From a virus, in UHGV virus genome UHGV-0237303: a DNA stretch of 18,454 nucleotides; one strand, written 5' to 3'. Positions 2,037-17,941 of the stretch are shown here, one piece after another (positions within the stretch are counted from its first letter, which is position 1; each line of letters opens with the position of its first letter). The position numbers and the translations under genes were made by a program. Below the pieces are notes generated by a model. That model was not told the origin of the DNA. It made no database searches and worked only from the letters and a program-made list of their open reading frames with translations.

Positions 2037-2490
2037 TTCCCTGCGTGAAGCCATGACCCGTTCATGCCGATGGTGTCAGGCCAACCCGGAAAAATTCACC
2101 ATTTTCGTGGAGAGCGGCAACATTGAAACGACAGGAGAAACCCCATCGTTTGTTTACCGCTATCAGATGGTGATGTTTGTCATGGATTACGCCGGGGAGC
2201 TGGACGACCTCACGCTGCCGCTGCTGGCGTGGTTATCCGAAAATCAGCCACAGTTGTTGCTCAACCCTGAGCGTAATCAGGACATCAAATTTTCCGCCGT
2301 TGTCAATGACGATGACAGCGCCGATCTCCTGTTTACGCTCCCCCTGCGGGAACGCGTTCGCATCACGCGCAGCAGTCAGGGCACACCGCAGGCAGAACAC
2401 CTGTCGGAGCCAAAACCCCGCCTGCCATCTTCCGAAGGCGACTGGTCGCATGTATTCCAGGATGTGACGTGGGGTGAAAGCGATGGATAA
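2023..2490 (+). CDS. R: Tail completion protein (P2 gpR-like)
   Basis: 155 aa, same length and position as P2 R; stop overlaps the start of the following S-like gene. Confidence 0.65.
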   Translation: MLKTDSLREAMTRSCRWCQANPEKFTIFVESGNIETTGETPSFVYRYQMVMFVMDYAGELDDLTLPLLAWLSENQPQLLLNPERNQDIKFSAVVNDDDSADLLFTLPLRERVRITRSSQGTPQAEHLSEPKPRLPSSEGDWSHVFQDVTWGESDG

Positions 2491-3118
2491 GGCATTCACC
2501 CGCGTGGATGAAACCTTTGAGGCCATCCGCGACAGCCTGAATCAGCAGGCCATCAATAACATCGCCAGAAAGCTGGCACAGGATTTACGCCGCGCCCAGC
2601 AGGCGCGCATCCGGTCACAGAAAGCGCCAGACGGGACCGCATGGACACCACGCAGACGCCGCGTAACCCGGATACAGGAGCGCATTCGCTTTATCTGGAA
2701 TAACGAAGCACGCACGCTGAAAAACTGGCATCACGACACGGGGAAATACGGGCGAACCATTACCGGGTGGGATGAGGATAAAAACAATATCCGCACGTTT
2801 TACCGGGATGACATCGACCGTTTTCTGGAAATACGCACCCGGCGCATCAACCAGGACAGCGCAAAGCGCGTCCCCATGTTCGTAAAACTGCGCACCGCCC
2901 GCTACCTGAAAGCCCGTGCAGATGCTTCCGGTGTGACGGTGGGTTACAGCGGCGTGGCCGCACGTATTGCCCGCGTTCATCAGTTCGGTGAGCGCGATCA
3001 GGTTGCGCCGGGCATTTTCACCGATTACCCGGTACGTGAGCTGCTGGGTATCAGCCAGGCAGATGAGCGCCTGATTTATAACACGGTGCTGGGCCGGATT
3101 GCGGAGGCTGTACAGTGA
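2483..3118 (+). CDS. Tail completion / virion morphogenesis protein (P2 gpS-like), extended
   Basis: ATG at 2483 overlaps the R stop (ATGGATAA); 211 aa; position between R and V. Longer than P2 S as I remember it (about 150 aa). Confidence 0.55.
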   Translation: MDKAFTRVDETFEAIRDSLNQQAINNIARKLAQDLRRAQQARIRSQKAPDGTAWTPRRRRVTRIQERIRFIWNNEARTLKNWHHDTGKYGRTITGWDEDKNNIRTFYRDDIDRFLEIRTRRINQDSAKRVPMFVKLRTARYLKARADASGVTVGYSGVAARIARVHQFGERDQVAPGIFTDYPVRELLGISQADERLIYNTVLGRIAEAVQ

Positions 3119-3696
3119 GCGCAGAACTCATGCGACTGCTGAGCAATATCATCCGCACCGGGATCATCTCTGAAGTTGATGAGAAGTCCTGGCGCGTGCG
3201 CGTTCGCAGCGGCGAACTGGAAACAGGCTGGTTGCGCTGGAACACCACGCGCGCGGGAGCCTTCAATGTGTGGCTGCCACCATCACCAGGCGAACAGGTG
3301 GTAATTGCCTGCATTGGCGGCAACCCGGAAACCGCCATGATAATTGGCAGCCTGTGGAGTGATGCCAATCCGGCCCCCGGCAAAAGCCTGAAAGAAATCG
3401 TGATCAGCGCGCCGGACGGCGCGGTGTTCCGCTACGACGCGGACGCAGGCGCACTGAGCGCCAGCGGCATGAAAACGGCCACTTTACAGGCATCCGTCAG
3501 CGTGAAACTGGACACGCCCGTCGTGGAATGCACAAACCTTCTGAGAACGGCGACGCTTGACGTCACAAAAGGGGGAAAGATGAGCGGCAATATCACGCAC
3601 AGCGGCGGCGATTTCACCTCAAACGGCATCACAGTGCATACGCATAAGCACGGTGGCGTTAAAGGTGGCAGCGATTCGACAGGAGGCCCGCAGTGA
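3115..3696 (+). CDS. V: Baseplate spike/assembly protein (P2 gpV-like)
   Basis: 193 aa; GTG start overlapping S stop; Gly/Ser/Thr-rich C-terminus ending HTHKHGGVKGGSDSTGGP, typical of V/gp5-like spikes; followed by W, J, I. Confidence 0.75.
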   Translation: MSAELMRLLSNIIRTGIISEVDEKSWRVRVRSGELETGWLRWNTTRAGAFNVWLPPSPGEQVVIACIGGNPETAMIIGSLWSDANPAPGKSLKEIVISAPDGAVFRYDADAGALSASGMKTATLQASVSVKLDTPVVECTNLLRTATLDVTKGGKMSGNITHSGGDFTSNGITVHTHKHGGVKGGSDSTGGPQ

Positions 3697-5544: not shown

Positions 5545-7034
5545 CAGTGAAATACTACGCCATTCTGACTAATCAGGGCGCGGCACGACTGGCTAACGCG
5601 ACGATGCTCGGCAGTAAGCTGAATCTGACGCAAATGGCCGTTGGTGATGCAAATGGTGTGTTACCAACACCAGACCCTGCACAAACAAAACTGATTAACC
5701 AGAAACGCATTGCACCGCTGAATCTTCTGAGTGTTGACCCTAACAATCAGAGCCAGATTATTGCGGAGCAAATCATCCCTGAAAACGAGGGAGGATTCTG
5801 GATCCGTGAGATTGGTCTTTATGATGATGAAGGTGTACTCATTGCGGTGGCAAACTGCCCGGAAACGTACAAACCGCAGTTGCAGGAAGGCAGTGGACGC
5901 ACCCAGACTATCCGCATGATTCTGGTTGTCACGAACACCGAAGCTATCACGCTGAAAATCGACCCGTCTGTGGTTCTGGCAACCCGCAAATATGTGGATG
6001 ATAAAATCTCAGAGCACGAACAGTCACGACGTCACCCGGACGCCTCGCTGACCGCAAAAGGTTTTACTCAGTTAAGCAGTGCAATTAACAGTGAATCAGA
6101 AACACTGGCCGCAACACCGAAAGCGGTTAAGGCTGCATATGACCTGGCTAACGGGAAATATACCGCCCAGAACGCCACCACTATACAAAAAGGGATTGTT
6201 CAGCTCAGTAGCGCCACGAACAGCAAGTCTGAAACGCTGGCAGCGACACCAAAAGCTGTTAAGGCGGTAATGGATGAAACGAACAAGAAAGCACCATTAA
6301 ACAGCCCGGCACTGACCGGAACGCCAACAACACCAACAGCGCCACAGGGGACTAATAGTACCCAGATCGCAAGCACGGCTTTCGTTATGGCCGCGATTGC
6401 CGCACTTGTAGATTCGTCACCTGATGCACTGAACACGCTGAACGAACTGGCTGCGGCGCTGGGCAATGACCCGAATTTTGCGACCACCATGACTAACGCG
6501 CTTGCGGGTAAGCAACCGAAGGATGCCACCCTGACGGCGCTGGCGGAGCTTGCTACATCAGCAGATAAACTCCCATATTTTACAGGGGCAGATCGTGCCG
6601 CGTTAACCGCGTTGACAAGTGTTGGACGTGCCATTCTTGGTAAAACCAGCACTCAGGGAGTTCTTGATTACCTTGGTTTGGGAGAAGCGGCGAAAAGGGA
6701 TGTGGGTACAGGAGAAAATCAGATACCGGATATGTCAGCCTGGAAAAGAAATCCGAGTTCTAATCGCTGGAGAAAATTGCCTGATGGAACCATCATTCAA
6801 ATGGGAATATCAGCATCAGGGCCATTAGGCTCACCTGTAAATATCACCCTGCCGATATCTTTCAGCAATACCAATTATTGTGTTGTTGCATCGTACGATA
6901 ATGCACGGTCAGGTGTGTCAACAATGGTTAGTTTTGCAGCATTACCTGTTTCACCATCGCAATTTTCCCTGATGTCATCTGTGACTGAGCAAGGAATAAA
7001 TCCTTTTGCTTACTGGATTGCTTTTGGAGATTGA
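5541..7034 (+). CDS. H: Tail fiber protein (P2 gpH-like); the last ~120 codons lie inside the invertible segment
   Basis: 497 aa; conserved N-terminus MTVKYYAILTNQGAARLANA...; duplicated fiber motif SETLAATPKAVKA; the crossover site is embedded at codons 374-382 (VLDYLGLGE). Confidence 0.8.
   Translation: MTVKYYAILTNQGAARLANATMLGSKLNLTQMAVGDANGVLPTPDPAQTKLINQKRIAPLNLLSVDPNNQSQIIAEQIIPENEGGFWIREIGLYDDEGVLIAVANCPETYKPQLQEGSGRTQTIRMILVVTNTEAITLKIDPSVVLATRKYVDDKISEHEQSRRHPDASLTAKGFTQLSSAINSESETLAATPKAVKAAYDLANGKYTAQNATTIQKGIVQLSSATNSKSETLAATPKAVKAVMDETNKKAPLNSPALTGTPTTPTAPQGTNSTQIASTAFVMAAIAALVDSSPDALNTLNELAAALGNDPNFATTMTNALAGKQPKDATLTALAELATSADKLPYFTGADRAALTALTSVGRAILGKTSTQGVLDYLGLGEAAKRDVGTGENQIPDMSAWKRNPSSNRWRKLPDGTIIQMGISASGPLGSPVNITLPISFSNTNYCVVASYDNARSGVSTMVSFAALPVSPSQFSLMSSVTEQGINPFAYWIAFGD
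6661..6686. repeat. Left 26-bp invertase crossover site (hix/gix/cix-like), inside H
   Basis: TTCTTGATTACC-TT-GGTTTGGGAGAA: two imperfect 12-bp inverted half-sites around a 2-bp core; inner arm plus core (TTGGTTTGGGAGAA) is identical to the reverse complement of 8466..8479; closely resembles the remembered hixL sequence TTCTTGAAAACCAAGGTTTTTGATAA. Confidence 0.65.
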
Positions 7035-7037
7035 TAA

Positions 7038-7457
7038 ATGGACAGATACTTCTATTCACAAAAAGAAAATGGTTTTTTTACCGATTTAAATAAAGCACCT
7101 TCAGATGCTGTTGAGATAACCACGGATGAATGGCTGTCACTACTGGATGGTCAGGATAATGGCATGAAAATAGTCAGCAATCAGGAGGGATATCCGGTTT
7201 TGACAGAGCAACCACCTTTATCAAAAGAAAACCTTATTGCATTAGCAGAGTTGAAAAAAGGAAAACTTATTAATGAAGCCAACGAGCACATGAACAGCAG
7301 GCAATGGCCTGGTAAAGCGGCTATTGGTCGTCTGAAAGGTGAGGAACTGGCGCAATATAATTTGTGGCTGGATTATCTGGACGCACTGGAGCTGGTCGAT
7401 ACTTCCAGTGCGCCAGATATTGAATGGCCTACGCCTCCGGCAGTTCAGGCCAGATGA
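7038..7457 (+). CDS. Tail fiber assembly protein (P2 gpG/Tfa-like), cassette currently in the expressed orientation
   Basis: 139 aa, 3 nt downstream of the H stop; C-terminus ...LDYLDALELVDTSSAPDIEWP is shared with the opposite-strand Tfa (...LDYIDAVTVTDTSTAPDIIWP). Confidence 0.75.
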   Translation: MDRYFYSQKENGFFTDLNKAPSDAVEITTDEWLSLLDGQDNGMKIVSNQEGYPVLTEQPPLSKENLIALAELKKGKLINEANEHMNSRQWPGKAAIGRLKGEELAQYNLWLDYLDALELVDTSSAPDIEWPTPPAVQAR

Positions 7458-8022
7458 TATCCGGCGCGGTGCTGGTATCTGTTACCGTCACCGCGTCAAT
7501 GTAATCCAGCACGGCGTTAAGTCGGGTTGTTTCTGCCTGCGCCAACTTCCGTCCGGCCTGCAATTTCAGTTGAATCAGACTAATGGAAGCCATTGCAGTA
7601 TCAATCAGTGACTGACGTTGTGCTTCTGCCGCGTCTACTGCGGCGCTATGCTGTGCCTCGGTATCCGTCACCCATTTCTCACCATCCCATTTATCGTATG
7701 GCGTTAACGGTGAAAGCGTGACATAACCGTCTTTGATGGCACCGATATAATCCACTGTAACAGCTGCGCCATTTTCTGTTGAGTAAACAGTCTCATTGCG
7801 ATGGTCTTCTTCATGGCTCCATCCCTTACCCGTAAATACTGCCACTTTTCCCGGAATGTTTTCGCCAGGGTCAATACCAGTGGAACAGGCGGGCATACTT
7901 ACGCCAGTATTAATATATTCATCAGACCAGCCCGTATACTCAGATGTTTCAGCATCATAATAAAAACAACGCATATCGCCCGGCACTGTAGCCAGCCCAT
8001 TTTCATCAAAAACAGGTTTCAT
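7429..8022 (-). CDS. Alternative tail fiber assembly protein (Tfa'), silent orientation
   Basis: 197 aa on the minus strand; conserved Tfa C-terminus; converges on and overlaps the + strand tfa by about 29 nt; start overlaps the stop of the alternative fiber cassette (TAATG). Confidence 0.7.
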   Translation of the reverse strand: MKPVFDENGLATVPGDMRCFYYDAETSEYTGWSDEYINTGVSMPACSTGIDPGENIPGKVAVFTGKGWSHEEDHRNETVYSTENGAAVTVDYIGAIKDGYVTLSPLTPYDKWDGEKWVTDTEAQHSAAVDAAEAQRQSLIDTAMASISLIQLKLQAGRKLAQAETTRLNAVLDYIDAVTVTDTSTAPDIIWPELPEA

Positions 8023-8477
8023 TATTTAGCCCTCACCAGAAAGTTAAATGCAATATTTCGCGGTCTGACAGCAACAAAATTCACACCATCACCCACAGAG
8101 TTACTGGTGAAATTAAATCGTGAAAATCCTGGCTGATTTCCGGCGATGCCATCATGAAAGTTAATTGCGTGTCCCGCACCTTCGCCTATATTCCCGGCAA
8201 ACTGAGAAAAGTTTGTAGCTGCCTGCCAGCTTAATAATTCACGACCACCGTCTGCACCTCGCCCGTCATCCCAGATACGAATGAAATCACCGCGGGCTTC
8301 AGGTAATACCAGCGAAGGAAACACTTTCGCCAGCACAGGATAATCAGTGGCAGAGAATTTCGCGCCGTTGAACTTCAAAAACACCATACTGGACCAGCTG
8401 TCGATTACAGTATTTGGCATTGCAGCGGACGGCCAGAAGAACGGAACGCCAATAGCTGGAGAACCTTCTCCCAAACC
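8022..8477 (-). CDS. Alternative tail fiber C-terminal cassette (H'), no start codon of its own; expressed only after inversion fuses it to the constant part of H
   Basis: Minus-strand frame reads GLGEGSPAIGVPFFWPSAAM... from the crossover core at 8478/8479, with the same GLGE junction as the current H; the track ORF 8022..8519 extends further 5' only because the frame stays open across the site. Confidence 0.65.
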   Translation of the reverse strand, partial: GLGEGSPAIGVPFFWPSAAMPNTVIDSWSSMVFLKFNGAKFSATDYPVLAKVFPSLVLPEARGDFIRIWDDGRGADGGRELLSWQAATNFSQFAGNIGEGAGHAINFHDGIAGNQPGFSRFNFTSNSVGDGVNFVAVRPRNIAFNFLVRAK

Positions 8478-8491
8478 AACGTTTAAGAAAA
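8466..8491. repeat. Right 26-bp invertase crossover site, inverted relative to the left site
   Basis: + strand TTCTCCCAAACC-AA-CGTTTAAGAAAA; reverse complement TTTTCTTAAACG-TT-GGTTTGGGAGAA has inner arm and core identical to the left site; lies about 55 nt upstream of the invertase start. Confidence 0.65.
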
Positions 8492-8546
8492 TGCAGAGAT
8501 TACGGCTAACTGGCATCATCCCCGGTTTTTATTCAGGGGATCCATC

Positions 8547-9146
8547 ATGCTTATTGGCTATGTCCGCGTATCAACAAATGACCAGAATACAGAATTGCAG
8601 CGTAACGCGCTGGAGTGCGCAGGATGTGAACTGATTTTTGAAGATAAAATCAGCGGAACGAAATCAGCCAGACCGGGATTGAAAAAACTGCTCAGAACGC
8701 TATCAGAAGGAGATACGCTGGTTGTCTGGAAGCTGGACAGACTGGGCAGAAGTATGAAACACCTGATCACGCTTATTGAGGAATTGCGGGAAAAAGGTGT
8801 TAATTTCCGTAGTCTGACGGACAGCATTGACACATCAACACCCATGGGGCGTTTCTTTTTTCACGTCATGGGAGCTTTAGCCGAAATGGAACGTGAATTA
8901 ATTGTAGAGCGTACACTGGCCGGGCTGGCAGCAGCACGCGCACAAGGACGCATTGGCGGACGTCGCCCGAAGTTGACAAAAGAACAACACGAGCAAATAG
9001 CGAGGCTGATTAAAAACGGTCATGACAGGAAACAACTGGCGATCATTTACGACATCGGCATATCGACGATTTATCGTTATCACCCTGTAGGCGATATACA
9101 GGCTGAAGAAACAACTAGGCAGACTCAGGAAAATGAAAACCGCTAA
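8547..9146 (+). CDS. Serine recombinase, DNA invertase (Gin/Hin/Pin/Cin family)
   Basis: 199 aa; N-terminal catalytic motif MLIGYVRVSTNDQ with the active-site serine, resolvase/invertase core (GDTLVVWKLDRLGRS), C-terminal helix-turn-helix; adjacent to the invertible segment. Confidence 0.85.
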   Translation: MLIGYVRVSTNDQNTELQRNALECAGCELIFEDKISGTKSARPGLKKLLRTLSEGDTLVVWKLDRLGRSMKHLITLIEELREKGVNFRSLTDSIDTSTPMGRFFFHVMGALAEMERELIVERTLAGLAAARAQGRIGGRRPKLTKEQHEQIARLIKNGHDRKQLAIIYDIGISTIYRYHPVGDIQAEETTRQTQENENR

Positions 9147-9165
9147 TCTGACCATTAGCGGTTTT
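9135..9165. terminator. Bidirectional rho-independent terminator between convergent invertase and U
   Basis: Perfect 12-bp stem AAAACCGCTAAT / ATTAGCGGTTTT with 6-nt loop CTGACC; A/T runs on both sides so it can serve both strands; overlaps the invertase stop codon. Confidence 0.55.
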
Positions 9166-9172
9166 GCGTTAA

Positions 9173-9667
9173 TCAAAACAGCCCTTTAACGGAGCTGGCC
9201 GCGCTGTTAAGGGATGATGTGACCTTATCTTTGAAGCCGGACAGCATATCACTGAACGATGAGGATTGCAGGCGCTCCCGCAAATCCTCATCACAGCGTT
9301 CAAGAGTCAGTGAAAATTCTATCTTTTTCGCCTTACCGTAGCGATCAAACTCGGAGCGGGTCGTATTCGTTCCGGTCAGGACATACATGCCGTAAATCTG
9401 CCCGACACCATCAATCAGAGGCCAGGGGCGTCCTGTATATGCCTGCGTGGTCAGCAACGAAAGCGATACTTCGCCACCTGTAATTTCAGGATAAAGCACA
9501 CCAGAAAGAACGATGCGATCATCGCCTGCCCCGATATACTGCCAGCTTGCTGAACGGTTAACGCGTTCATTTTTCACATGCCGCCAGCTTTTGTTTTGCT
9601 GTAACTGCTGATGCGGCAGCGTGCGCAGCTCAAAAACAAACATGCCGTAGATCATCATCATGGCCAT
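9173..9667 (-). CDS. U: Tail protein (P2 gpU-like)
   Basis: 164 aa (P2 U about 159 aa) immediately downstream of the tape measure gene on the minus strand. Confidence 0.65.
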   Translation of the reverse strand: MAMMMIYGMFVFELRTLPHQQLQQNKSWRHVKNERVNRSASWQYIGAGDDRIVLSGVLYPEITGGEVSLSLLTTQAYTGRPWPLIDGVGQIYGMYVLTGTNTTRSEFDRYGKAKKIEFSLTLERCDEDLRERLQSSSFSDMLSGFKDKVTSSLNSAASSVKGLF

Positions 9668-9673
9668 GACTCC

Positions 9674-12517
9674 TCAATCTTTATCGTAAAAACTGCCACG
9701 CCCGGCACGGGCGCGCCGTTCCATTTCTGCCCTGACCATTTCACCGACCAGTTTCGCCAGTTCGCGGGGATTCTGTGTAACAACGTTATGCAGATGAACA
9801 TGAATTTCACCGCCAAATCCGGAAGCAACAGGCTCCCGGTTACGGGAAGTTGCAGGAACTGATGCCACTGGCGATCGTATGGCCTCTGCCACCGGGCGGG
9901 AGCTGGCCGCAACAACAGGGACCAGCGCCGGAGGCAGCGGAGCCGGAACCACAGGTGTGATATTAATTGCGGGGGCAGGCTTACTGACCTGCGCAATCTT
10001 CCGCTCCTGCCACTCCCCACGAACAGCAAGTGCGCGGGGCAGGTTCTTAAAGACAATATCGCCGGGGCCAATACGTTTTTTCGTCTCATCAACCAGCTTA
10101 CCTGTGTTATCAGCAATTTTGCTGAGTCTGCGTAGCGTACCGGTATTGCTGTCTGTGAGCGGTTTGTTGTCTTTGGGTTTATCACCTCCGGTGCCATTGC
10201 CATTTTCCACAGGCTTCGGCGGATTGATTTTCGCCAGGTCCCCCTGAAGCAAGGCAACCTTGTCCTGAAGAATGGCCGCACGCTGTGCGTCTTCGATTTT
10301 CTTGCGCGCCCTTTCCGCTTCATCCGGAAGCACACCGAGCTTTTCAAGTATCCACGCTAGCGTATCCAGCAACATTTTTGCAGGTGTCAGAACAAGTTGT
10401 AACGCACCGCCAAGAACGTTACCGAATGTCTCGCCAGCACTGGTACATTTATCCAGCGTTTCCTTGCTGGACTCCATCGGTGACAGCAGCGATTTAAACC
10501 AGTTAAACACCTGGCTGATCCCACTCCCGATTGCGTCAAAAACAGGACCAAACCGTTCAAAGGTTTCGCGCAACGGGGTCAGCCTTTCCATAATCCCGCT
10601 GAACACCCCGGCAAAAAATGCCCTGATGGGATCCCAGTATTTCCAGATAAGGACGGCAGCTCCGGCAAGCGCAGCCACGATAAGACCAACCGGACTGAAC
10701 AGCGCCCCGATAGCGCCTCCCAGTAAAGAAACGGAACCCGTCACCATTCCCCACAGTGCTGGCAGGACCCTGACAGCATTCATTGATCCGGTCAGGAGAG
10801 AAAAACCAAGGCGCAGTTTTGCCAGCGGACCAGCAAGCACACCAATAGCCAGCGACAACGAGCCAACCGTTGCAGTCATTGCCAGCAACGCACCGCCTGC
10901 TATCAGTAGCTGGCGCGTCAGTGCCGGATGGGCCTGCGCCAGCGCCGTCACCCTTGATACCACCCGCGTGAGCCACTGCGTGACAGAACGCAGCGGACCG
11001 TCAATCAGATCTGCAATGCGGATGCGCAACCCTTCCCATGCACTGCCGAGTGATTTCAGATCGCCGTCAAGGTTGTTGGCCATGACCTTTGCTGTGCGTT
11101 CAGCCTCACCGCGCGCGCCTTCAAGTTCTTTTCTCAGTTTAGGTAAGGAACCGTCACCCGCTGCATCAACGAGCGCCATAAACGATGTGAAAGCCTCTTC
11201 TCCGGCAATGTCCTTAAAGAACGATACCCGGTCAACTTCCCCGTATTTGCGGGTGGCTTTATAAAGGTCGGCCAGCACATCCTCCATCGGGCGCATTTTG
11301 CCGTTCGCGTCAGAGACTGCCACACCAAGCTCTTTCAGCGCCTCTGCTGCTGCCTTTGGCGGTGATGCCAGACGAGCCAGGCTGGCACGCATTGCCGTCC
11401 CAGCATCACTCCCTCTGATACCCATATTCGCCAGCACGCCCGCCATCGCTGCGGCCTGCTCCAGCGATATTCCCAGCTTACCCGCCACCGGACCTGCATA
11501 TTTCATGGTTTCGCCCAGTGCGCGAAGGTCAGTGTTGGTACGGGTAAATGCTGCGGTGAGCGTGTCGCCAACCCGGTCCATCTGGTCAGCAGAAAGGCCG
11601 AACTGCGTCAGGATATTTGAGCCAATATCCGCCGTCTCGCCGAGATCCATGCCGCCAGCCGTTGCCATGCTCAGCACGCCCGGAAGCGCAGCCTGAATGG
11701 CCTGCGGAGTGAAGCCAGCCATTGCAAGAAATGCCTGCCCACTGGCGGCATCGCCTGCGGTGAACTGCGTTTCAGAGCCAAGTTTTAACGCCTGCTCACG
11801 CAGCGCCTTAAACTGCGGGCTGTTCTGGTCGATTCGCGTCAGTGCCTGAACGCGGGACATCTCTTTGCCGAACCCGATCGCAGGCTGCAAAAAACGCCCG
11901 GCAGCATAGCCGCCAGCCGCTGCCGCACCAATTGCCAGCGCACCACCTGTTTTCAGTTTTCCCGCGGTTTCCTGCACGCGCGAATACCGCTCACGCGCCC
12001 GCGTTACACGCGCAAGCGCCTGCCGTTCGCGTTCAAGCTGGTTGTTGTACTGTTCGGTGCGTCTGATGGCCTGCTGGATGGTGTTATCGCTGCCTGTCAG
12101 GGAAATGCCGTGGCGTTTCAGCTCTCCGCCAAGCTCCCGCATTTTCTGAATTTCCCGTGTGCGCGATTCATTCAGGCGTTCAAGCCGGGTGCTTAACTGC
12201 TGCATCAGCTTTTGTTGTTTTTCGCTGAGCACTGTACCCGTGCGTTGTAACTGATTAAGGGCGTTAAGCTGGCGTCGCGCTTTCACGATACCCGCATCCG
12301 CTTTACTGACAGCGTCGCGGGCGCGCTCAAATGAACGCGCCTGACGCTCGAGATTTTTGATCGCCCCCTGCGTTCGCTGGATGGAGTCACCAAACTGCCC
12401 CATCAGGCGGCGGGCGTTTTCGGCAGGTCGGGTCAGCCTGTCAACGGCGCTGAAAGCGACCCGGATATCAAGAGTCTTCATTGTCTGCATTCCCGCTGCG
12501 AAGTGCCGCCCGCTCAC
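9674..12517 (-). CDS. T: Tail tape measure protein (P2 gpT-like)
   Basis: 947 aa, largest ORF; Ala/Gly/Gln-rich, long helical N-terminal part, hydrophobic Gly/Ala-rich central stretch; GTG start; position after E/E'. Confidence 0.8.
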   Translation of the reverse strand: MSGRHFAAGMQTMKTLDIRVAFSAVDRLTRPAENARRLMGQFGDSIQRTQGAIKNLERQARSFERARDAVSKADAGIVKARRQLNALNQLQRTGTVLSEKQQKLMQQLSTRLERLNESRTREIQKMRELGGELKRHGISLTGSDNTIQQAIRRTEQYNNQLERERQALARVTRARERYSRVQETAGKLKTGGALAIGAAAAGGYAAGRFLQPAIGFGKEMSRVQALTRIDQNSPQFKALREQALKLGSETQFTAGDAASGQAFLAMAGFTPQAIQAALPGVLSMATAGGMDLGETADIGSNILTQFGLSADQMDRVGDTLTAAFTRTNTDLRALGETMKYAGPVAGKLGISLEQAAAMAGVLANMGIRGSDAGTAMRASLARLASPPKAAAEALKELGVAVSDANGKMRPMEDVLADLYKATRKYGEVDRVSFFKDIAGEEAFTSFMALVDAAGDGSLPKLRKELEGARGEAERTAKVMANNLDGDLKSLGSAWEGLRIRIADLIDGPLRSVTQWLTRVVSRVTALAQAHPALTRQLLIAGGALLAMTATVGSLSLAIGVLAGPLAKLRLGFSLLTGSMNAVRVLPALWGMVTGSVSLLGGAIGALFSPVGLIVAALAGAAVLIWKYWDPIRAFFAGVFSGIMERLTPLRETFERFGPVFDAIGSGISQVFNWFKSLLSPMESSKETLDKCTSAGETFGNVLGGALQLVLTPAKMLLDTLAWILEKLGVLPDEAERARKKIEDAQRAAILQDKVALLQGDLAKINPPKPVENGNGTGGDKPKDNKPLTDSNTGTLRRLSKIADNTGKLVDETKKRIGPGDIVFKNLPRALAVRGEWQERKIAQVSKPAPAINITPVVPAPLPPALVPVVAASSRPVAEAIRSPVASVPATSRNREPVASGFGGEIHVHLHNVVTQNPRELAKLVGEMVRAEMERRARAGRGSFYDKD

Positions 12518-12997
12518 GCCAGCTAACCACTTCGCCGGGCGTCATCATGAAGATTTCGGCGGGCGACCAGTTAAAAATAACGGCAATATCTGCCACAAAG
12601 TCTTCTATGTGCTCAAAGCACACAACCGTGATCAGGCTTCCGTCGCCTGTTCGTTCTTCCCGCCAGAGTCCGCACCGCTCAAAAAATTTACGGCAACCAC
12701 ACATAACTGAATAAAGTCACGGGATGCCATTTTTTTGATCGTCACTTCATCCAGTCGCGGTGATGTCACGCGTGACAACAGCGTAAACATGGATTCCGCT
12801 TTCAGATTCAGCACATCAGACAGCGACAAATCTCGCAGAGATCCAGCCTGCTCAATAGCCCCGGTGATCTCCACATACGTGATTTTTTCGCCGCCTCGCT
12901 CAATGGATTGGGTAAGTTTTACGCCACGCTCACTGGTTTCTTTCACAGTGTCAGCAACTACCGTGTTTTCGGTATCGATGTTTTTCGTCTCTTTCAT
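12468..12997 (-). CDS. E+E' fusion product made by programmed -1 ribosomal frameshift
   Basis: Zero frame reads ...AAT TTT TTG (N104 F105 L106); the -1 frame ORF 12468..12704 reads straight through the same heptamer (...KFFERCGLW...); predicted fusion about 170 aa. Confidence 0.6.
12632..12997 (-). CDS. E: Tail assembly chaperone (P2 gpE-like), zero-frame product
   Basis: 121 aa between tail tube and tape measure genes; contains a TTTTTTG slippery heptamer near its 3' end with a -1 frame ORF running on past it. Confidence 0.7.
   Translation of the reverse strand: MKETKNIDTENTVVADTVKETSERGVKLTQSIERGGEKITYVEITGAIEQAGSLRDLSLSDVLNLKAESMFTLLSRVTSPRLDEVTIKKMASRDFIQLCVVAVNFLSGADSGGKNEQATEA
12680..12686 (-). 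other. Slippery heptamer T TTT TTG for the E/E' -1 frameshift
   Basis: Located by codon position from the ORF track (E codons 104-106); same heptamer as reported for P2 E/E+E' (recalled from memory). Confidence 0.6.
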
Positions 12998-13051
12998 CAG
13001 GAAACTCCTTTCAGTCAGAGGCGACGCACTGCGCCGCCTGCATATTACTTA

Positions 13052-13564
13052 TCAGCCAAGCCCAAGCGCGGAACGGATGCGATCGGGCACAATGTCCTTG
13101 CCGTCCTTCCGGTAAATGAAGTTCAGCAGGTCAATCTCCCACAACGGACGATCGTTAACACTCAGCTTGTAGTAGGTGTTTTTAATGGCGTAAGTGTGTG
13201 ATGTGGCTTCGCCCTGTTTGGCTTCCCCCATATCAATTTCCGTCACACGTCCGCGCATTTCGACTTCATACAGGTCGCTTTCTGCATCGGTGTAGTATTC
13301 ACCCGCAAAACGCAGCAGCGTGCCGTCAATCGTGCCGCCATACTTAAGGAACAGCTCACGAACTGCGCCCCCCATGACAAAGCTCGCATCAAGCGCGGAG
13401 TCGTCCAGACCGAGATCAATACTTACCGCCCCCATCATGCCACCACCCCGGTAGCTGTCGGTTTTGCGCGTCAGCTTAGGCAAAGTGACGGACGTCACCT
13501 TACCCACTTCGTTTTCACCATCCACAAACAGCGTAAAAAAGCGAAGATGTTTTGGCACAGCCAT
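13052..13564 (-). CDS. FII: Tail tube protein (P2 gpFII-like)
   Basis: 170 aa (P2 FII about 172 aa) directly downstream of the sheath gene; start overlaps the sheath stop. Confidence 0.8.
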   Translation of the reverse strand: MAVPKHLRFFTLFVDGENEVGKVTSVTLPKLTRKTDSYRGGGMMGAVSIDLGLDDSALDASFVMGGAVRELFLKYGGTIDGTLLRFAGEYYTDAESDLYEVEMRGRVTEIDMGEAKQGEATSHTYAIKNTYYKLSVNDRPLWEIDLLNFIYRKDGKDIVPDRIRSALGLG

Positions 13565-14748
13565 CAGGCACCTCCCAGCACCGCAAATGCGGGTTCAAAG
13601 TATTCATCAGTAAACGTCTGGTAAAGCTCCATGTCTTCCAGTGGCGGAACGGGCGTATATTTGTAGCGAATACGCACACGCCCCTGACGTAAATCCGTGG
13701 TGCTGTTATCCACCACGTCATACCAGCACTCCGCGCCAATCAGTTTCCCGGCAGTCACCAGTGAATCCAGTTTTGCCCTGATGGCACTGATAACATCCTT
13801 CACGTTCGCAGGCGTCAGTGGACTGTCGATGGTTTCAAACTGCGCTTCCGCAATTGAATCAGCCAGCACCTGTGCGGTTCGGGTATACACCTCAAAAATG
13901 TAGGCGTTCGTTTCCGGTGTGCGGTTGCCCCAGAAGCGGAACCCGTTGCGACGAATAATGGTCGTGATTTCTTTGTTGTTGAGGCTGTTGGCATCGCTGT
14001 CTTCGGCCTGCAACGACCAGAACACATGCCTCGACATCCCCAGCACATTTTTAACCGGAACGTTGGACAGCGATTTGTGCCAGCCCTGCTCATGGTCAAT
14101 GTACGCACGAAGGCCGCACGCATAAGCAGGCGCGGGGAACGTTTCGTTTTCGCCACTTTTCGGGTTGTAGGCGATGAAGTCCGGCCATAAGAGCATCACT
14201 TCACGTTCGTTGAATTTCTGGCGGTAGGTAATCGCTTCAGCCATCGTGTTACAGCCGTGACATGAGGCATACACAAATGCGCGCAGTTTACCCGCAATCA
14301 CGCACAGGGATTTTGTCACCGCCTCCGTGTCCAGCTCCGGCGCGGCCAGAATACGCGGACGGTATCCGATGCTTTCATCCTGCTCTGCAACAAGCAGCGC
14401 ATACATCCCCGTATAGCTGCCGTCATCCTCAGAACCACCGATAACCAGTTGATCCTGCGTCTTTTCGTCTTCTTCTTTGTGTTCAGCCACGCGAACGACG
14501 ATCACCTTTGTGCTCACCTGGTCTGCGATGGCCTTAAGCGCACGATAAAGCGTCCCCGTTGTTCCGCATTTTCCCAGCACGTCATTGACGCGGGTCAGCA
14601 GTGTGGGCTTGTTCAGCGGGAACAGCTTCGCGTCCGCATCATCCGCCGTTGCCACGATACCGATAACGCTGGAATCAACATCGTTAATCGCTGTTACCAG
14701 GTCGGTATTTTCCGTAACACGGGCACCATGAAAACGAGTTTCACTCAT
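13564..14748 (-). CDS. FI: Contractile tail sheath protein (P2 gpFI-like)
   Basis: 394 aa (P2 FI about 396 aa); AAGGGG Shine-Dalgarno upstream of the ATG; first gene of the minus-strand FI-FII-E-T-U block. Confidence 0.85.
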   Translation of the reverse strand: MSETRFHGARVTENTDLVTAINDVDSSVIGIVATADDADAKLFPLNKPTLLTRVNDVLGKCGTTGTLYRALKAIADQVSTKVIVVRVAEHKEEDEKTQDQLVIGGSEDDGSYTGMYALLVAEQDESIGYRPRILAAPELDTEAVTKSLCVIAGKLRAFVYASCHGCNTMAEAITYRQKFNEREVMLLWPDFIAYNPKSGENETFPAPAYACGLRAYIDHEQGWHKSLSNVPVKNVLGMSRHVFWSLQAEDSDANSLNNKEITTIIRRNGFRFWGNRTPETNAYIFEVYTRTAQVLADSIAEAQFETIDSPLTPANVKDVISAIRAKLDSLVTAGKLIGAECWYDVVDNSTTDLRQGRVRIRYKYTPVPPLEDMELYQTFTDEYFEPAFAVLGGA

Positions 14749-14904
14749 AGCTTCAGCCCCTTGTATCCGTTAAATGATTCGGCAACAATCATCACCCACC
14801 ACGCGCGTAATCTCACCCCTGCGCCGTTCTCCCGCCACGGCGACAACAAAAAGCAGTAACCCCCTCCGCACGCACATGCGACCATGCCACACAGGGAGGG
14901 AGCA

Positions 14905-16015
14905 GATGACCGACACCACCATGCAATTGCTCAGTCAGGGCACAGACCCCGTGAAAATGCCGGATTTTGATATTCTCGCGGAGGGTAAAACGCTGTCAGG
15001 CGTGGCAGAGCGCCTGATGAGCCTGTCACTGACCGACAACCGGGGATTTGAAGCGGACCAGCTCACCATCACGCTGGATGATGCGGATGGTCAGTTGCAG
15101 CTACCGCCACGGGGCGCGCGCCTGACGGTTCTCATTGGCTGGAAAGGAGAACCGCTGACAGAAAAAGGCACTTACATTGTTGATGAAATCGCTCACGAAG
15201 GACCGCCGGACAGGCTGACTGTTTCAGCCAGAAGCGCAGATTTTCGGGATGAATTTAACGTTAAACGTGAGGTGTCCTGGCATGATGTGACCGTTGAGCG
15301 TGTGGTATCCGCCATCGCTCATCGGTACGGTCTGAAACCGCAAATCAGCGAAATGCTGATGGATATCGAAATCGACCACGCCGACCAGACCGAAGAAAGC
15401 GACATGTCCTTCCTTACGCGCATGGCGGAAATGCTGGGCGCAATCACCACGGTAAAAAGCGGCAATCTGTTATTCATCATGCCAGGTGGTGGCGTGAACG
15501 CACAGGGCCAGCCGTTGCCCTCGTTCGCCATTACACGCAGCAGTGGCGATCGCCATCAGTTCCGCATTGCTGACCGCGAGGCGTATACGGGTGTACGCGC
15601 CTACTGGCTTGATCTTAATTACGGGAAAAAGAAAAAAGTCAGCGTGAAACGCCGCAAACCGCCAAAACCCAAAAAGGAGAAAAGCAGCAGCCGTGAAGGT
15701 GATTATATGGAAGGCGCGGAAGGCAATGTGTTTGTGTTACGCAAGACTTATCAGAACGAGCAGGCAGCAAGACGCGCAGCGGCGGCAAAGTGGCAGCAGC
15801 TACAACGCGGAGCCGCATCATTCTCCATCATGCTGGCACGCGGACGCGCAGAACTCTACCCCGAAATGCATGGCACGGTAACAGGCTTTAAAAGCGAGAT
15901 TGATAATCAGGACTGGATTATTGCAAAAGCCGAGCACACCATTGATAACAGCGGCTTTACCACACAGCTTGAGCTTGAGGCAAAAATCCCGGAATGGATA
16001 GCAGAAACAGAGTGA
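14905..16015 (+). CDS. D: Late control / tail protein D (P2 gpD-like)
   Basis: ATG at 14905 with GGGAGGG Shine-Dalgarno (internal Met of track ORF 14774..16015); 370 aa (P2 D about 387 aa); lysine-rich central linker (KKKKVSVKRRKPPKPKKEK). Confidence 0.7.
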
Positions 16016-16083
16016 GCAACTTAGACATATTAGCTCAGACTTAAACTGGCAAGTTTACAGTATAGAATTAAACATAAACGACG

Positions 16084-16107
16084 GTCCGCTCCGTGTCAGA
16101 AGCGGAC
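16084..16107. terminator. Candidate hairpin terminator between convergent D and the 340-aa orphan gene
   Basis: 7-bp GC-rich stem GTCCGCT / AGCGGAC with a 10-nt loop; T-rich tract follows on the minus strand. Weak (large loop). Confidence 0.3.
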
Positions 16108-16135
16108 TTTGTCATCCCTATGTAAGGTTGATTGC

Positions 16136-17158
16136 TTAATACGCATTTAATTTAAATTTGTATTTGCCTTCTATGTAATGGATAAATTCAATTATGCTTT
16201 TTTCTATCGCATCTAATATATGAATATATCCATCCCGATTTAAGGTCCTATCCAACTCAAAGTGATGAACTATCCCATGTCTATATTGTATGATTTCAGA
16301 AATTCGATTCTCAAGAAAATCAACTGATTTTCCAATTCTTTTTTTCTTATAAAGAATCGCTCTCACATCTATATCCAGCCACTCTTTATATGCTTTGTTT
16401 AGGTGAGTTAAGTTTTGAAAAGTGTAATTTCTTGCAATAACACTTTCTATTGAAATATTTCCTTTCTCTATCTCAAGCAGAATATCAAAATCAACTTTTT
16501 GCTTATACGATGTTCTTTTTGCTATTGCGAAAGGATCGTACTTTATAAGTATTTGAAAAGCTCTAGAGAAAAAATATTCAAACATAGCAACCGCAAAAGG
16601 TACTAATCCATTATATATAACTCTACTGGGATCCATACATTGCATGTAATCAAAGTATTCGGATAAGCCGCCATCTTCCGGTAGGTTTAATTTAATAGAA
16701 GGTTCAGGTAAGGCATGTTTAACAGCGGAAATCTCATGATGGACATGATTAAATATTGAAGAAATGCCGCGACTGATCGGACTACTAGAATCCTTCCATA
16801 GAGGAGCGTACCTATTTTTCCCATAATCACCTATAAGTGTTCCACCAAAAAGACTCCTTGCGCCTTTTAGAACATCATTAAGCATTTTTACATCATGCCA
16901 ACTAGCGCTATATAAATTACGCACATGCAATGCCCATTTATTACCAGATATGTGTAGTTCGTCATTTGAAACAGGATATATATCAGCCGAAACTCCATCT
17001 GTAGATTTGAAGTCCGTATCATCAAACCAAGAGTAATTCAACGTTCCTTGGGGCCATTCCCACAAATGTTTACACCTTTTAAAACCTAAATTTTCAAGGT
17101 AATTTTTAAGTTCGTTTCTAGTTGCTTTTTTAGGGTACAGCGTTATATCTCTTCCCAT
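16136..17158 (-). CDS. Hypothetical 340-aa protein on AT-rich acquired DNA; candidate accessory/defence protein (possible HEPN-like R-x4-H motif)
   Basis: Single long minus-strand ORF with AT-rich, Ile/Lys/Asn/Tyr-rich codon usage unlike the flanking phage genes; AGGTGA Shine-Dalgarno about 8 nt upstream of the ATG; no resemblance to any P2 structural protein I can recognise; C-terminal YRHGIVHH. Confidence 0.6.
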   Translation of the reverse strand: MGRDITLYPKKATRNELKNYLENLGFKRCKHLWEWPQGTLNYSWFDDTDFKSTDGVSADIYPVSNDELHISGNKWALHVRNLYSASWHDVKMLNDVLKGARSLFGGTLIGDYGKNRYAPLWKDSSSPISRGISSIFNHVHHEISAVKHALPEPSIKLNLPEDGGLSEYFDYMQCMDPSRVIYNGLVPFAVAMFEYFFSRAFQILIKYDPFAIAKRTSYKQKVDFDILLEIEKGNISIESVIARNYTFQNLTHLNKAYKEWLDIDVRAILYKKKRIGKSVDFLENRISEIIQYRHGIVHHFELDRTLNRDGYIHILDAIEKSIIEFIHYIEGKYKFKLNAY

Positions 17159-17349
17159 GCTTTATTCACCTGATATACAATATTTTAAATTTTAACTATT
17201 ATGAACGTATGAATTTTCACATTGGATGTATGGAAGTTCAACAACTATTGAAAGTTCAATTTTCACTCTTCGCACAGAGCGAGCTGTTAGTTGGAATTAG
17301 GGATCGTACAATCTAGAATAGCGGCAACACCACGTTAAGGGAGGTCGCT

Positions 17350-17610: not shown

Positions 17611-17800
17611 CAAGCAGAATTGCCGGAGTAACAAAAAAGCGATAGATTACGCGCGGGTGCCTTTCGGCTGATGGTCGGAGGGAATACCCGAAGGCCAGAT
17701 GTGGAAAGGCCCCGGAAAACACTTTTGTTTAACCGAGGCCCTAACCATCTACCCTAAGCAAGTGAAAGGTTAGCGCCTCTCCGGAAAAGGAGCAAGTGCT

Positions 17801-17941
17801 ATGTCGCAAAAATCGCTTACAGCCATCACGTTCTGCGTGACGGTAATCCTCATCATCTGGATGTTGCACGGTTCGCTGTGCGAAATACGGATGAGTTTCT
17901 GGGGAGCGGAGTTTGCGGCGTTCTTACAGTGTAAGCAGTAA
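17801..17941 (+). CDS. Hok/Gef-family type I toxin (small membrane peptide), 46 aa
   Basis: MSQKSLTAITFCVTVILIIWMLHGSLCEIRMSFWGAEFAAFLQCKQ: single TM helix with C-x-T and the family-typical SLCEIR motif; AAGGAG Shine-Dalgarno 8 nt upstream; below the 60-aa cutoff of the ORF track. Confidence 0.65.
   Translation: MSQKSLTAITFCVTVILIIWMLHGSLCEIRMSFWGAEFAAFLQCKQ

Follow-up and report, generated by a model that had tools for sequence, protein, structure and literature searches.

The late gene region described here lies in the virus genome UHGV-0237303, of which a stretch of 18,454 nucleotides (nt), referred to as the window, was analysed in full; its subject is a block of P2-type tail genes (FI, FII, E/E', T and U) that runs opposite to the late genes on either side, and the means by which the neighbouring gene D may be expressed. 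Genes were called using Pfam on the open reading frames (ORFs) of the window together with tblastn searches with the proteins of the P2 reference record. By tblastn, R, S, V, W, J, I, H, D and ogr were placed on the plus strand and FI, FII, E, T and U on the minus strand. The genes of the central region are the following:

8547-9146, plus strand: serine DNA invertase of the Hin/Gin type (Pfam Resolvase, 6e-52, and HTH_7)
9173-9667, minus strand: gpU tail protein (Pfam Phage_P2_GpU, 1.5e-38; 46% identity to P2 U)
9674-12481, minus strand: gpT tape measure (Pfam PhageMin_Tail, 2e-58; 33% identity to P2 T)
12632-12997, minus strand: gpE (tblastn match to P2 E, 31% identity)
12468-12997, minus strand: E+E' product made by a -1 frameshift (slippery TTTTTTG at about 12686-12680, E' end at 12468)
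13052-13564, minus strand: gpFII tail tube (Pfam Phage_tube, 7.5e-47; 42% identity to P2 FII)
13564-14748, minus strand: gpFI tail sheath (Pfam sheath domains; 46% identity to P2 FI)
14906-16015, plus strand: gpD, the baseplate hub or 'late control D' (Pfam Phage_GPD; 48% identity to P2 D; start as in phage P88)
17350-17610, plus strand: zinc-finger late activator of the Ogr/Delta type (Pfam Ogr_Delta, 3e-14)

The gene order was observed directly, Pfam and tblastn agreeing that the plus-strand invertase and the plus-strand D enclose a minus-strand block made up of U, T, E/E', FII and FI, as had been stated in a preliminary description made from the letters of the window and its ORFs. Comparison with the P2 annotation bears out the further statement that the FI-U block is inverted relative to P2, and shows FI to U to be the sole flipped part, with V to G, D and ogr in the P2 orientation. 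The canonical one-strand FI-FII-E-T-U-D operon order is thus absent from the window, although the P2-type contractile tail gene content (FI, FII, E/E' with its -1 frameshift, T, U and D) is complete, at 30-49% identity to P2. Judging by the reading frames, E+E' is intact and retains a P2-type slippery heptamer, as the -1 frame past TTTTTTG (12686-12680, minus strand) is open down to 12468. The T ORF reaches a GTG at 12517, and the start given here, 12481, is that of the P88 annotation mapped by offset and is probably the true one. The D gene starts at ATG 14906, behind a Shine-Dalgarno (SD) sequence, GGGAGGGAG, at 14894-14902; an upstream ATG at 14774 (ORF 14774-16015) was rejected as the D start, the extension being unconserved and interrupted by stop codons in relatives. 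FI and D diverge from a short spacer, as first described, its length being 157 bp (14749-14905) rather than the 156 bp originally given.

On sequence comparison over the 18 kb window, the stretch is a P88-like (Xuanwuvirus, Peduoviridae) prophage of the P2 family. A 7.7 kb query covering 8400-16100 is collinear with phage P88 and 96.2% identical to it over 97%, and the same region is 94-95% identical to Citrobacter phage Shae_phiSM (PhiSM), Xuanwuvirus P884B11 and others, with 13 records reaching a coverage of at least 80%. The proteins R through FI, D and ogr are 97-100% identical to their P88-like counterparts, with the exception of I and H. The annotations of P88 and PhiSM show the invertase (plus strand), then U, T, E', E, FII and FI (all minus strand), then D (plus strand). 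Both are inducible or spontaneously active phages (PMC5285337; PMC6456863), so the inverted arrangement is a functional one. Further away, U to FI is opposite to D in all matches whose D protein shows 60-80% identity, namely three phages: Salmonella SEN5 (Senquatrovirus), Klebsiella Kp4871-3 (Reginaelenavirus) and Kp4847-1 (Reipivirus). A Kapieceevirus phage, with a D protein 52% identical to that of the window, and P2 have the canonical order.

The distribution of the inverted order, likewise directly observed, was established by a D-alignment scan of species-representative bacterial genomes, in which the best 80 of 423 D-encoding loci were assessed. Among these 80, the order was inverted in 61, canonical in 18 and uninformative in one, and the split was perfect, all loci with a D at least 61% identical to that of the window being inverted and all those at 53% or below being canonical. 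The inverted loci of this set span about 27 genera of Enterobacterales, including Salmonella, Citrobacter, Klebsiella, Enterobacter, Kosakonia, Pantoea, Erwinia, Serratia and Brenneria, as well as Pectobacterium, Symbiopectobacterium, Edwardsiella, Xenorhabdus, Photorhabdus, Providencia, Morganella, Yersinia and Hafnia; for the Xenorhabdus xnp1 tailocin, published text suggests the canonical orientation. One contig, NZ_JBQPOM010000071.1 (locus L010, 'Vagococcus sp. WN89Y'), carries a Firmicute label and prophage proteins 96-99% identical to those of the enterobacterial P88-like phage of the window, and is probably a case of contamination or mislabelling of the assembly. Of 5426 complete Escherichia coli genomes, 1355 contain an uninterrupted FI/D junction and 621 an uninterrupted invertase/U junction, and the presence of contiguous junctions in so many complete genomes shows that they are not assembly artefacts. 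The preliminary description had regarded the inversion as an unusual event, possibly due to misassembly or population heterogeneity, a view that does not stand, since the orientation recurs in related phages and in over 1300 complete E. coli genomes. It had itself held that verified relatives sharing the orientation would speak against that view, and alignment to P2-like genomes found the orientation to be common to related phages; its fallback of a lineage-specific arrangement is what emerged, the orientation being the normal state of the whole clade.

A single origin of the arrangement is suggested by neighbour-joining trees of D (84 sequences) and FI (79 sequences) rooted on P2, in each of which the inverted loci form one clade. 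The pairwise identities of FI and D are correlated (Spearman 0.91), which indicates that the block and D have travelled together. Outgroup phages are canonical (P2, Kapieceevirus, Mannheimia PHL101, Ralstonia RsoM1USA, Burkholderia KS14 and Shewanella M16-3), and as these distant Peduoviridae all share the canonical order, this order is taken as ancestral and the flip as derived. The divergence from P2 is equal in the block (FI 46%, FII 42%, U 46%) and in its flanks (D 48%, V 47% and W 44% by tblastn), which argues against the import of a foreign module.

The FI/D spacer contains three elements that may account for the expression of the genes on both sides:

14828-14845, both strands: predicted Ogr-type activator dyad, TCT-N12-ACA (conserved position; likeness to the P/O spacer)
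14788-14793, minus strand: predicted -10-like hexamer GATGAT of the FI late promoter, PF (start site at about 14781)
14880-14885, plus strand: predicted -10-like hexamer GACCAT of a D promoter, PD (start site at about 14892)

Late promoters of the P2 type carry a partial dyad, TGT-N12-ACA, whose centre lies about 55 nt ahead of the start site, and they depend on Ogr/Delta/B and on the alpha subunit of RNA polymerase. A search of the spacer for an Ogr-dependent site of the form TGT-N12-ACA had been proposed at the outset; a dyad is present as TCT-N12-ACA, with one mismatch, and the exact motif has no match in the window. In 60 or more inverted loci, a dyad T(G/C)T-N12-ACA stands at a near-fixed 66-79 nt from the FI ATG. 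The conservation of the spacer geometry was observed directly in 35 non-redundant inverted spacers anchored on the dyad, which is perfect (TGT-N12-ACA) in 24 and of the TCT form in nine. Counted from the dyad edge, a hexamer nAnnAT occupies exactly nt 35-40 in 30 of the 35 spacers on the D side and in 33 on the FI side, against six at most at any other offset. The hexamers vary by lineage (AATCAT, AACTAT, GACCAT, GACGAT; GATTAT, GAATAT, GATGAT), with the A at position 2 and the T at position 6 constant. Canonical relatives carry the FI-side hexamer in 13 of 16 cases and a far-side hexamer in one of 16, often with a terminator there instead; the rarity of the far-side hexamer indicates that only the inverted clade possesses the D-side core element. 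The same two-sided architecture is found in the P/O spacers of P88, SEN5, Kp4871-3 and Kp4847-1, and the TCT or TGT type of the half-site agrees between the P/O and FI/D spacers of the same genome (4/4). The P/O spacer of P88 (154 bp) and the FI/D spacer of the window (157 bp) are alike, and both hold GTTCT-N12-ACAACAAAA(A)GC. As a control, the rule that the start site lies at the dyad edge plus 47 nt (dyad centre at about -56) was applied to P2, where it gave 17625 for PF, 3127 for PO and 3016 for PP, the annotated starts being 17626-17628, 3127 and 3016, respectively. A generic sigma-70 scan of the plus strand of 14749-14905 returned nothing useful; it gave a weak minus-strand match inside D (14999-14972).

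Conservation extends to a CGCGCG(C) run at a distance of 22-30 nt from the dyad (about -25 to -17), which is found on the D side of the FI/D spacer and likewise on the P side of its P/O counterpart. In the window this run is weaker (CGCACGCAC, 14867-14875), and in the P88 locus (L004) it lies at about 14180-14190. It may be a spacer or a discriminator-like element of late promoters.

At the other end of the block, U and the invertase converge on a second symmetric element:

9136-9165, both strands: predicted bidirectional intrinsic terminator hairpin (terminator scan and RNA folding)

This hairpin has a 12-bp stem, AAAACCGCTAAT...ATTAGCGGTTTT, flanked by an A-run and a T-run, overlaps the stop codon of the invertase and ends 8 nt from the stop codon of U. 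It folds at -16.9 kcal/mol (z = -3.4) and -18.1 kcal/mol (z = -2.8) on the two strands relative to shuffles, in keeping with the initial proposal of a terminator common to both genes, and as predicted it would form the left junction of the inverted block.

The invertase that adjoins the block appears to act elsewhere. A pair of crossover-like sites of 17-18 nt, TTCTCCCAAACCAAGGT at 6670-6686 (inside H) and a near-copy at 8466-8482, is inverted and brackets alternative tail-fibre ends, the chance expectation for such a pair being 0.06. Between these sites, fibre C-terminus and assembly genes lie on opposite strands at 7038-7457 (plus), 7429-8022 (minus) and 8022-8519 (minus). No hix-like motif was found at the FI-U boundaries, its occurrences in the window being restricted to the fibre segment, and a search for inverted repeats joining the block junctions (about 9150 against about 14850) yielded no pair. 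Judging by its sites, the invertase is one that serves the tail-fibre segment in the usual Hin/Gin-type host-range switch and has no role in the FI-U flip. The earlier view that it was not responsible is therefore upheld, as hix-like sites occur only at these two places and SEN5 has the same order without an invertase.

Taken together, it is suggested that the arrangement goes back to one ancient inversion in a common ancestor of the Enterobacterales clade, and that D is served by a promoter which shares the PF activator site; this combined reading is considered probable. The inversion would have flipped the segment from the PF promoter to U, one breakpoint lying upstream of the site at which PF is activated and the other at the U/D boundary, in an ancestor of at least Xuanwuvirus, Senquatrovirus, Reginaelenavirus and Reipivirus, while D-ogr and the baseplate and fibre genes would have kept their place. 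The elements at the junctions are symmetric, a palindromic terminator on the left and a dyad activator site on the right, and would function in either orientation, which probably made the inversion tolerable. The terminator would stop both the upstream operon and the U transcript. In this position D is out of reach of both PF and the upstream operon and therefore needs a promoter within the 157-bp spacer; comparison with the P2 map and the conserved spacer elements support the first account in predicting that D has been uncoupled from the F operon and would depend on a promoter of its own there. Most likely, this is a late promoter that shares the old PF activator site in the manner of PP/PO of P2. 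After the inversion, D would have required only a core promoter and an SD sequence on the free side of the dyad. It would thus have gained its own SD sequence and a second core promoter, PD, at mirror-image spacing on the D side, with the hexamer 35-40 nt from the dyad and the dyad centre at about -56. One bound activator would then drive FI-FII-E/E'-T-U leftward and D, normally D-ogr, rightward. The ogr gene lies 40-110 nt after D on the same strand in 60 of 65 inverted loci, and this proximity indicates that the new unit is normally D-ogr.

Several points weigh against this interpretation. The P2 rooting is a choice, and the polarity that makes the canonical order ancestral rests on a handful of outgroups. 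The start sites, the binding of Ogr and the dependence on Ogr are all predicted, and the dyad of the window is imperfect (TCT). A scan for dyad plus hexamer in the window by itself was not above chance, with four matches against 2.7 +/- 1.7 in shuffles, so that the case for the promoter rests on the comparison with relatives. These relatives share ancestry, so that common descent, and not selection, could account for some of the conservation; against this stands the retention of A2 and T6 in hexamers of otherwise varying sequence. Finally, the D-side block CGCGCGC...AAnnAT could have been conserved for a different function, such as one in the mRNA leader.

Among the alternatives, the one that fares best accepts the ancient inversion and has D transcribed from an ordinary activator-independent promoter or from a separate regulator site that has escaped recognition, the PF dyad not being shared. 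The imperfect dyad of the window would fit such a promoter, as would a partial -35-like GTT/TTG element that in many relatives precedes the D-side hexamer by 17-18 bp and makes some basal sigma-70 activity conceivable, and the P2 annotation gives ogr a constitutive-type promoter of its own. An independent promoter would, however, not need the exact spacing to the dyad at which the D-side hexamer stands in 30 of 35 relatives; the generic sigma-70 scan is empty on the plus strand of the spacer, and the layout of the D side, CGCGCG and then a hexamer at 35-40 nt, is like that of the P side in the P/O spacer. This alternative is thus regarded as unlikely. Within the reading of a shared activator site, the more specific proposal that the inversion made an activator-dependent promoter that had worked in one direction work in both, that a mirror core promoter evolved and that the D-ogr unit is subject to positive feedback is held only slightly more probable than its opposite.

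A second alternative, in which the FI-U module was replaced by the tail module of another phage lineage inserted in the opposite orientation, draws on the mosaic nature of phage genomes and on the tape measure being the most diverged gene, at 33% identity to P2. FI, FII and U nevertheless show the same divergence from P2 as their neighbours V, W, J and D, the FI and D trees give the same clade and the identities of the two proteins track each other (Spearman 0.91). The PF dyad has also stayed at its P2 distance from the FI ATG, its centre being 83 nt upstream in P2 and about 81-88 nt upstream in the inverted clade, and a replacement is accordingly judged very improbable. Least credible by far is a recent inversion, an assembly artefact or an ongoing flip by the Hin/Gin-type invertase that would leave the orientation genome-specific or population-variable, for although the invertase gene abuts the FI-U block and the order departs from the textbook P2 map, the same junctions recur in 13 phage records, four genera of the International Committee on Taxonomy of Viruses (ICTV), 61 prophage loci and, for FI/D, the 1355 complete E. 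coli genomes, the crossover motif is confined to the fibre segment, the two ends of the block are not joined by any inverted repeat, an invertase adjoining U is lacking in SEN5 and in most of the inverted loci, and the spacer has adapted promoter and SD elements.

Between D and ogr, the window carries a cargo insertion of about 1.3 kb (16026-17317; guanine-plus-cytosine fraction 0.35-0.43), which lies exactly between the D stop codon and the ogr SD sequence and has the boundaries ...CTTAGA/.../TCTAGA/ATAGCG. It contains a strong hairpin at 16084-16107 and a minus-strand gene at 16136-17158 for a protein of 340 amino acids with a sub-threshold match to HEPN_RiboL-PSP (E 1.2e-4); PADLOC and NCBIfam gave no match for this HEPN-like gene. 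More than 1 kb separates D from ogr in only three of 65 inverted loci, and L010 has a different insertion of about 1.5 kb at this place. The cargo is possibly an anti-phage or accessory gene in a D-ogr hotspot. Downstream of ogr, a plus-strand ORF for 46 amino acids at 17801-17941, MSQKSLTAITFCVTVILIIWMLHGSLCEIR..., resembles a Hok/Gef-type membrane toxin, and P88 has a MokW/hok-family gene annotated at the matching place; Rfam hok/sok had no match at gathering score at 17801-17941, and Rfam and transfer RNA scans of the window gave no matches.

Upstream in the window, S (2474-3118) overlaps V (3115-3696) at 3115-3118, which leaves no space for P2 orf30 or the PV promoter. No convincing PV-like dyad was found upstream of R and V (including 1886-2022) or in a window-wide scan; one PV-like candidate, seen in P88, ends 3 nt ahead of the R ATG and was not convincing. 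R-S-V-W-J-I-H-G may be read within the O operon in Xuanwuvirus, and the total of late promoters could still be four, namely PP, PO, PF and PD.

The inverted gene order is in itself ordinary. Public records such as those of P88, PhiSM and SEN5 are annotated with it, and roughly one complete E. coli genome in four carries it. Within the library of papers searched, no description of the FI-U inversion or of a shared FI/D late promoter was found, the P88, PhiSM and SEN4/5 papers being silent on the inversion. What is new is the proposed regulatory reading, that of a two-way Ogr promoter of the PP/PO type at a new place. For annotators, it follows that the inverted order should not be flagged as a rearrangement or an assembly error, and the arrangement provides a single-event marker for a large clade of P2-like phages. 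The reading predicts a second two-way late promoter in the style of PP/PO with specific start sites, and suggests how an inversion that breaks an operon can be tolerated when the elements at its ends, here a palindromic terminator and a dyad activator site, work independently of orientation. Should the two-way promoter and its feedback be real, ogr would lie downstream of a promoter that its own product activates, a feedback which P2 has only via read-through of the F operon, and the locus would illustrate neatly how, in nature, a symmetric regulatory site can rescue an operon that has been split.

Compared with known systems, the window is closest to P88 and PhiSM, whose gene order and strands are identical to it from R to ogr; they are without the low-GC cargo of about 1.3 kb between D and ogr, and differ in the C-terminal parts of the tail fibre, with H 63-70% identical. 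The Hin/Gin/Cin segments (Mu G, P1 C, Salmonella H) have their counterpart in the window in the invertase and its 18-nt inverted crossover pair (6670-8482), whereas the FI-U block, unlike such segments, is not bounded by crossover sites and is fixed in one orientation across the clade. The F operon of P2 (PF: FI FII E E' T U D, followed by ogr), of which D is the last gene according to PMC3931495, contains the same genes at 30-49% identity and the same E/E' TTTTTTG frameshift, and its PF geometry is as in the window, with the dyad centre about 83 nt from the FI ATG and the hexamer about 35-41 nt from the dyad. In P2 these seven genes share one strand and D overlaps the end of U, whereas in the window FI-U is flipped and D stands apart with an SD sequence and a predicted promoter. 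That paper also states, citing Christie & Calendar 1985 and Julien & Calendar 1995, that the four P2 late promoters carry TGT-N12-ACA, and reports that PP' and PO' of Smp131 use one common site (PMC3931495). The nearest parallel to the FI/D spacer is PP/PO of P2, where one dyad (3063-3080) lies between divergent late units with annotated starts at 3016 and 3127, 47 nt from the dyad edges, and the window is predicted to be arranged likewise. The pair in the window, a prediction from sequence, lies at sheath/D and not at terminase/scaffold, and would have arisen secondarily by rearrangement.

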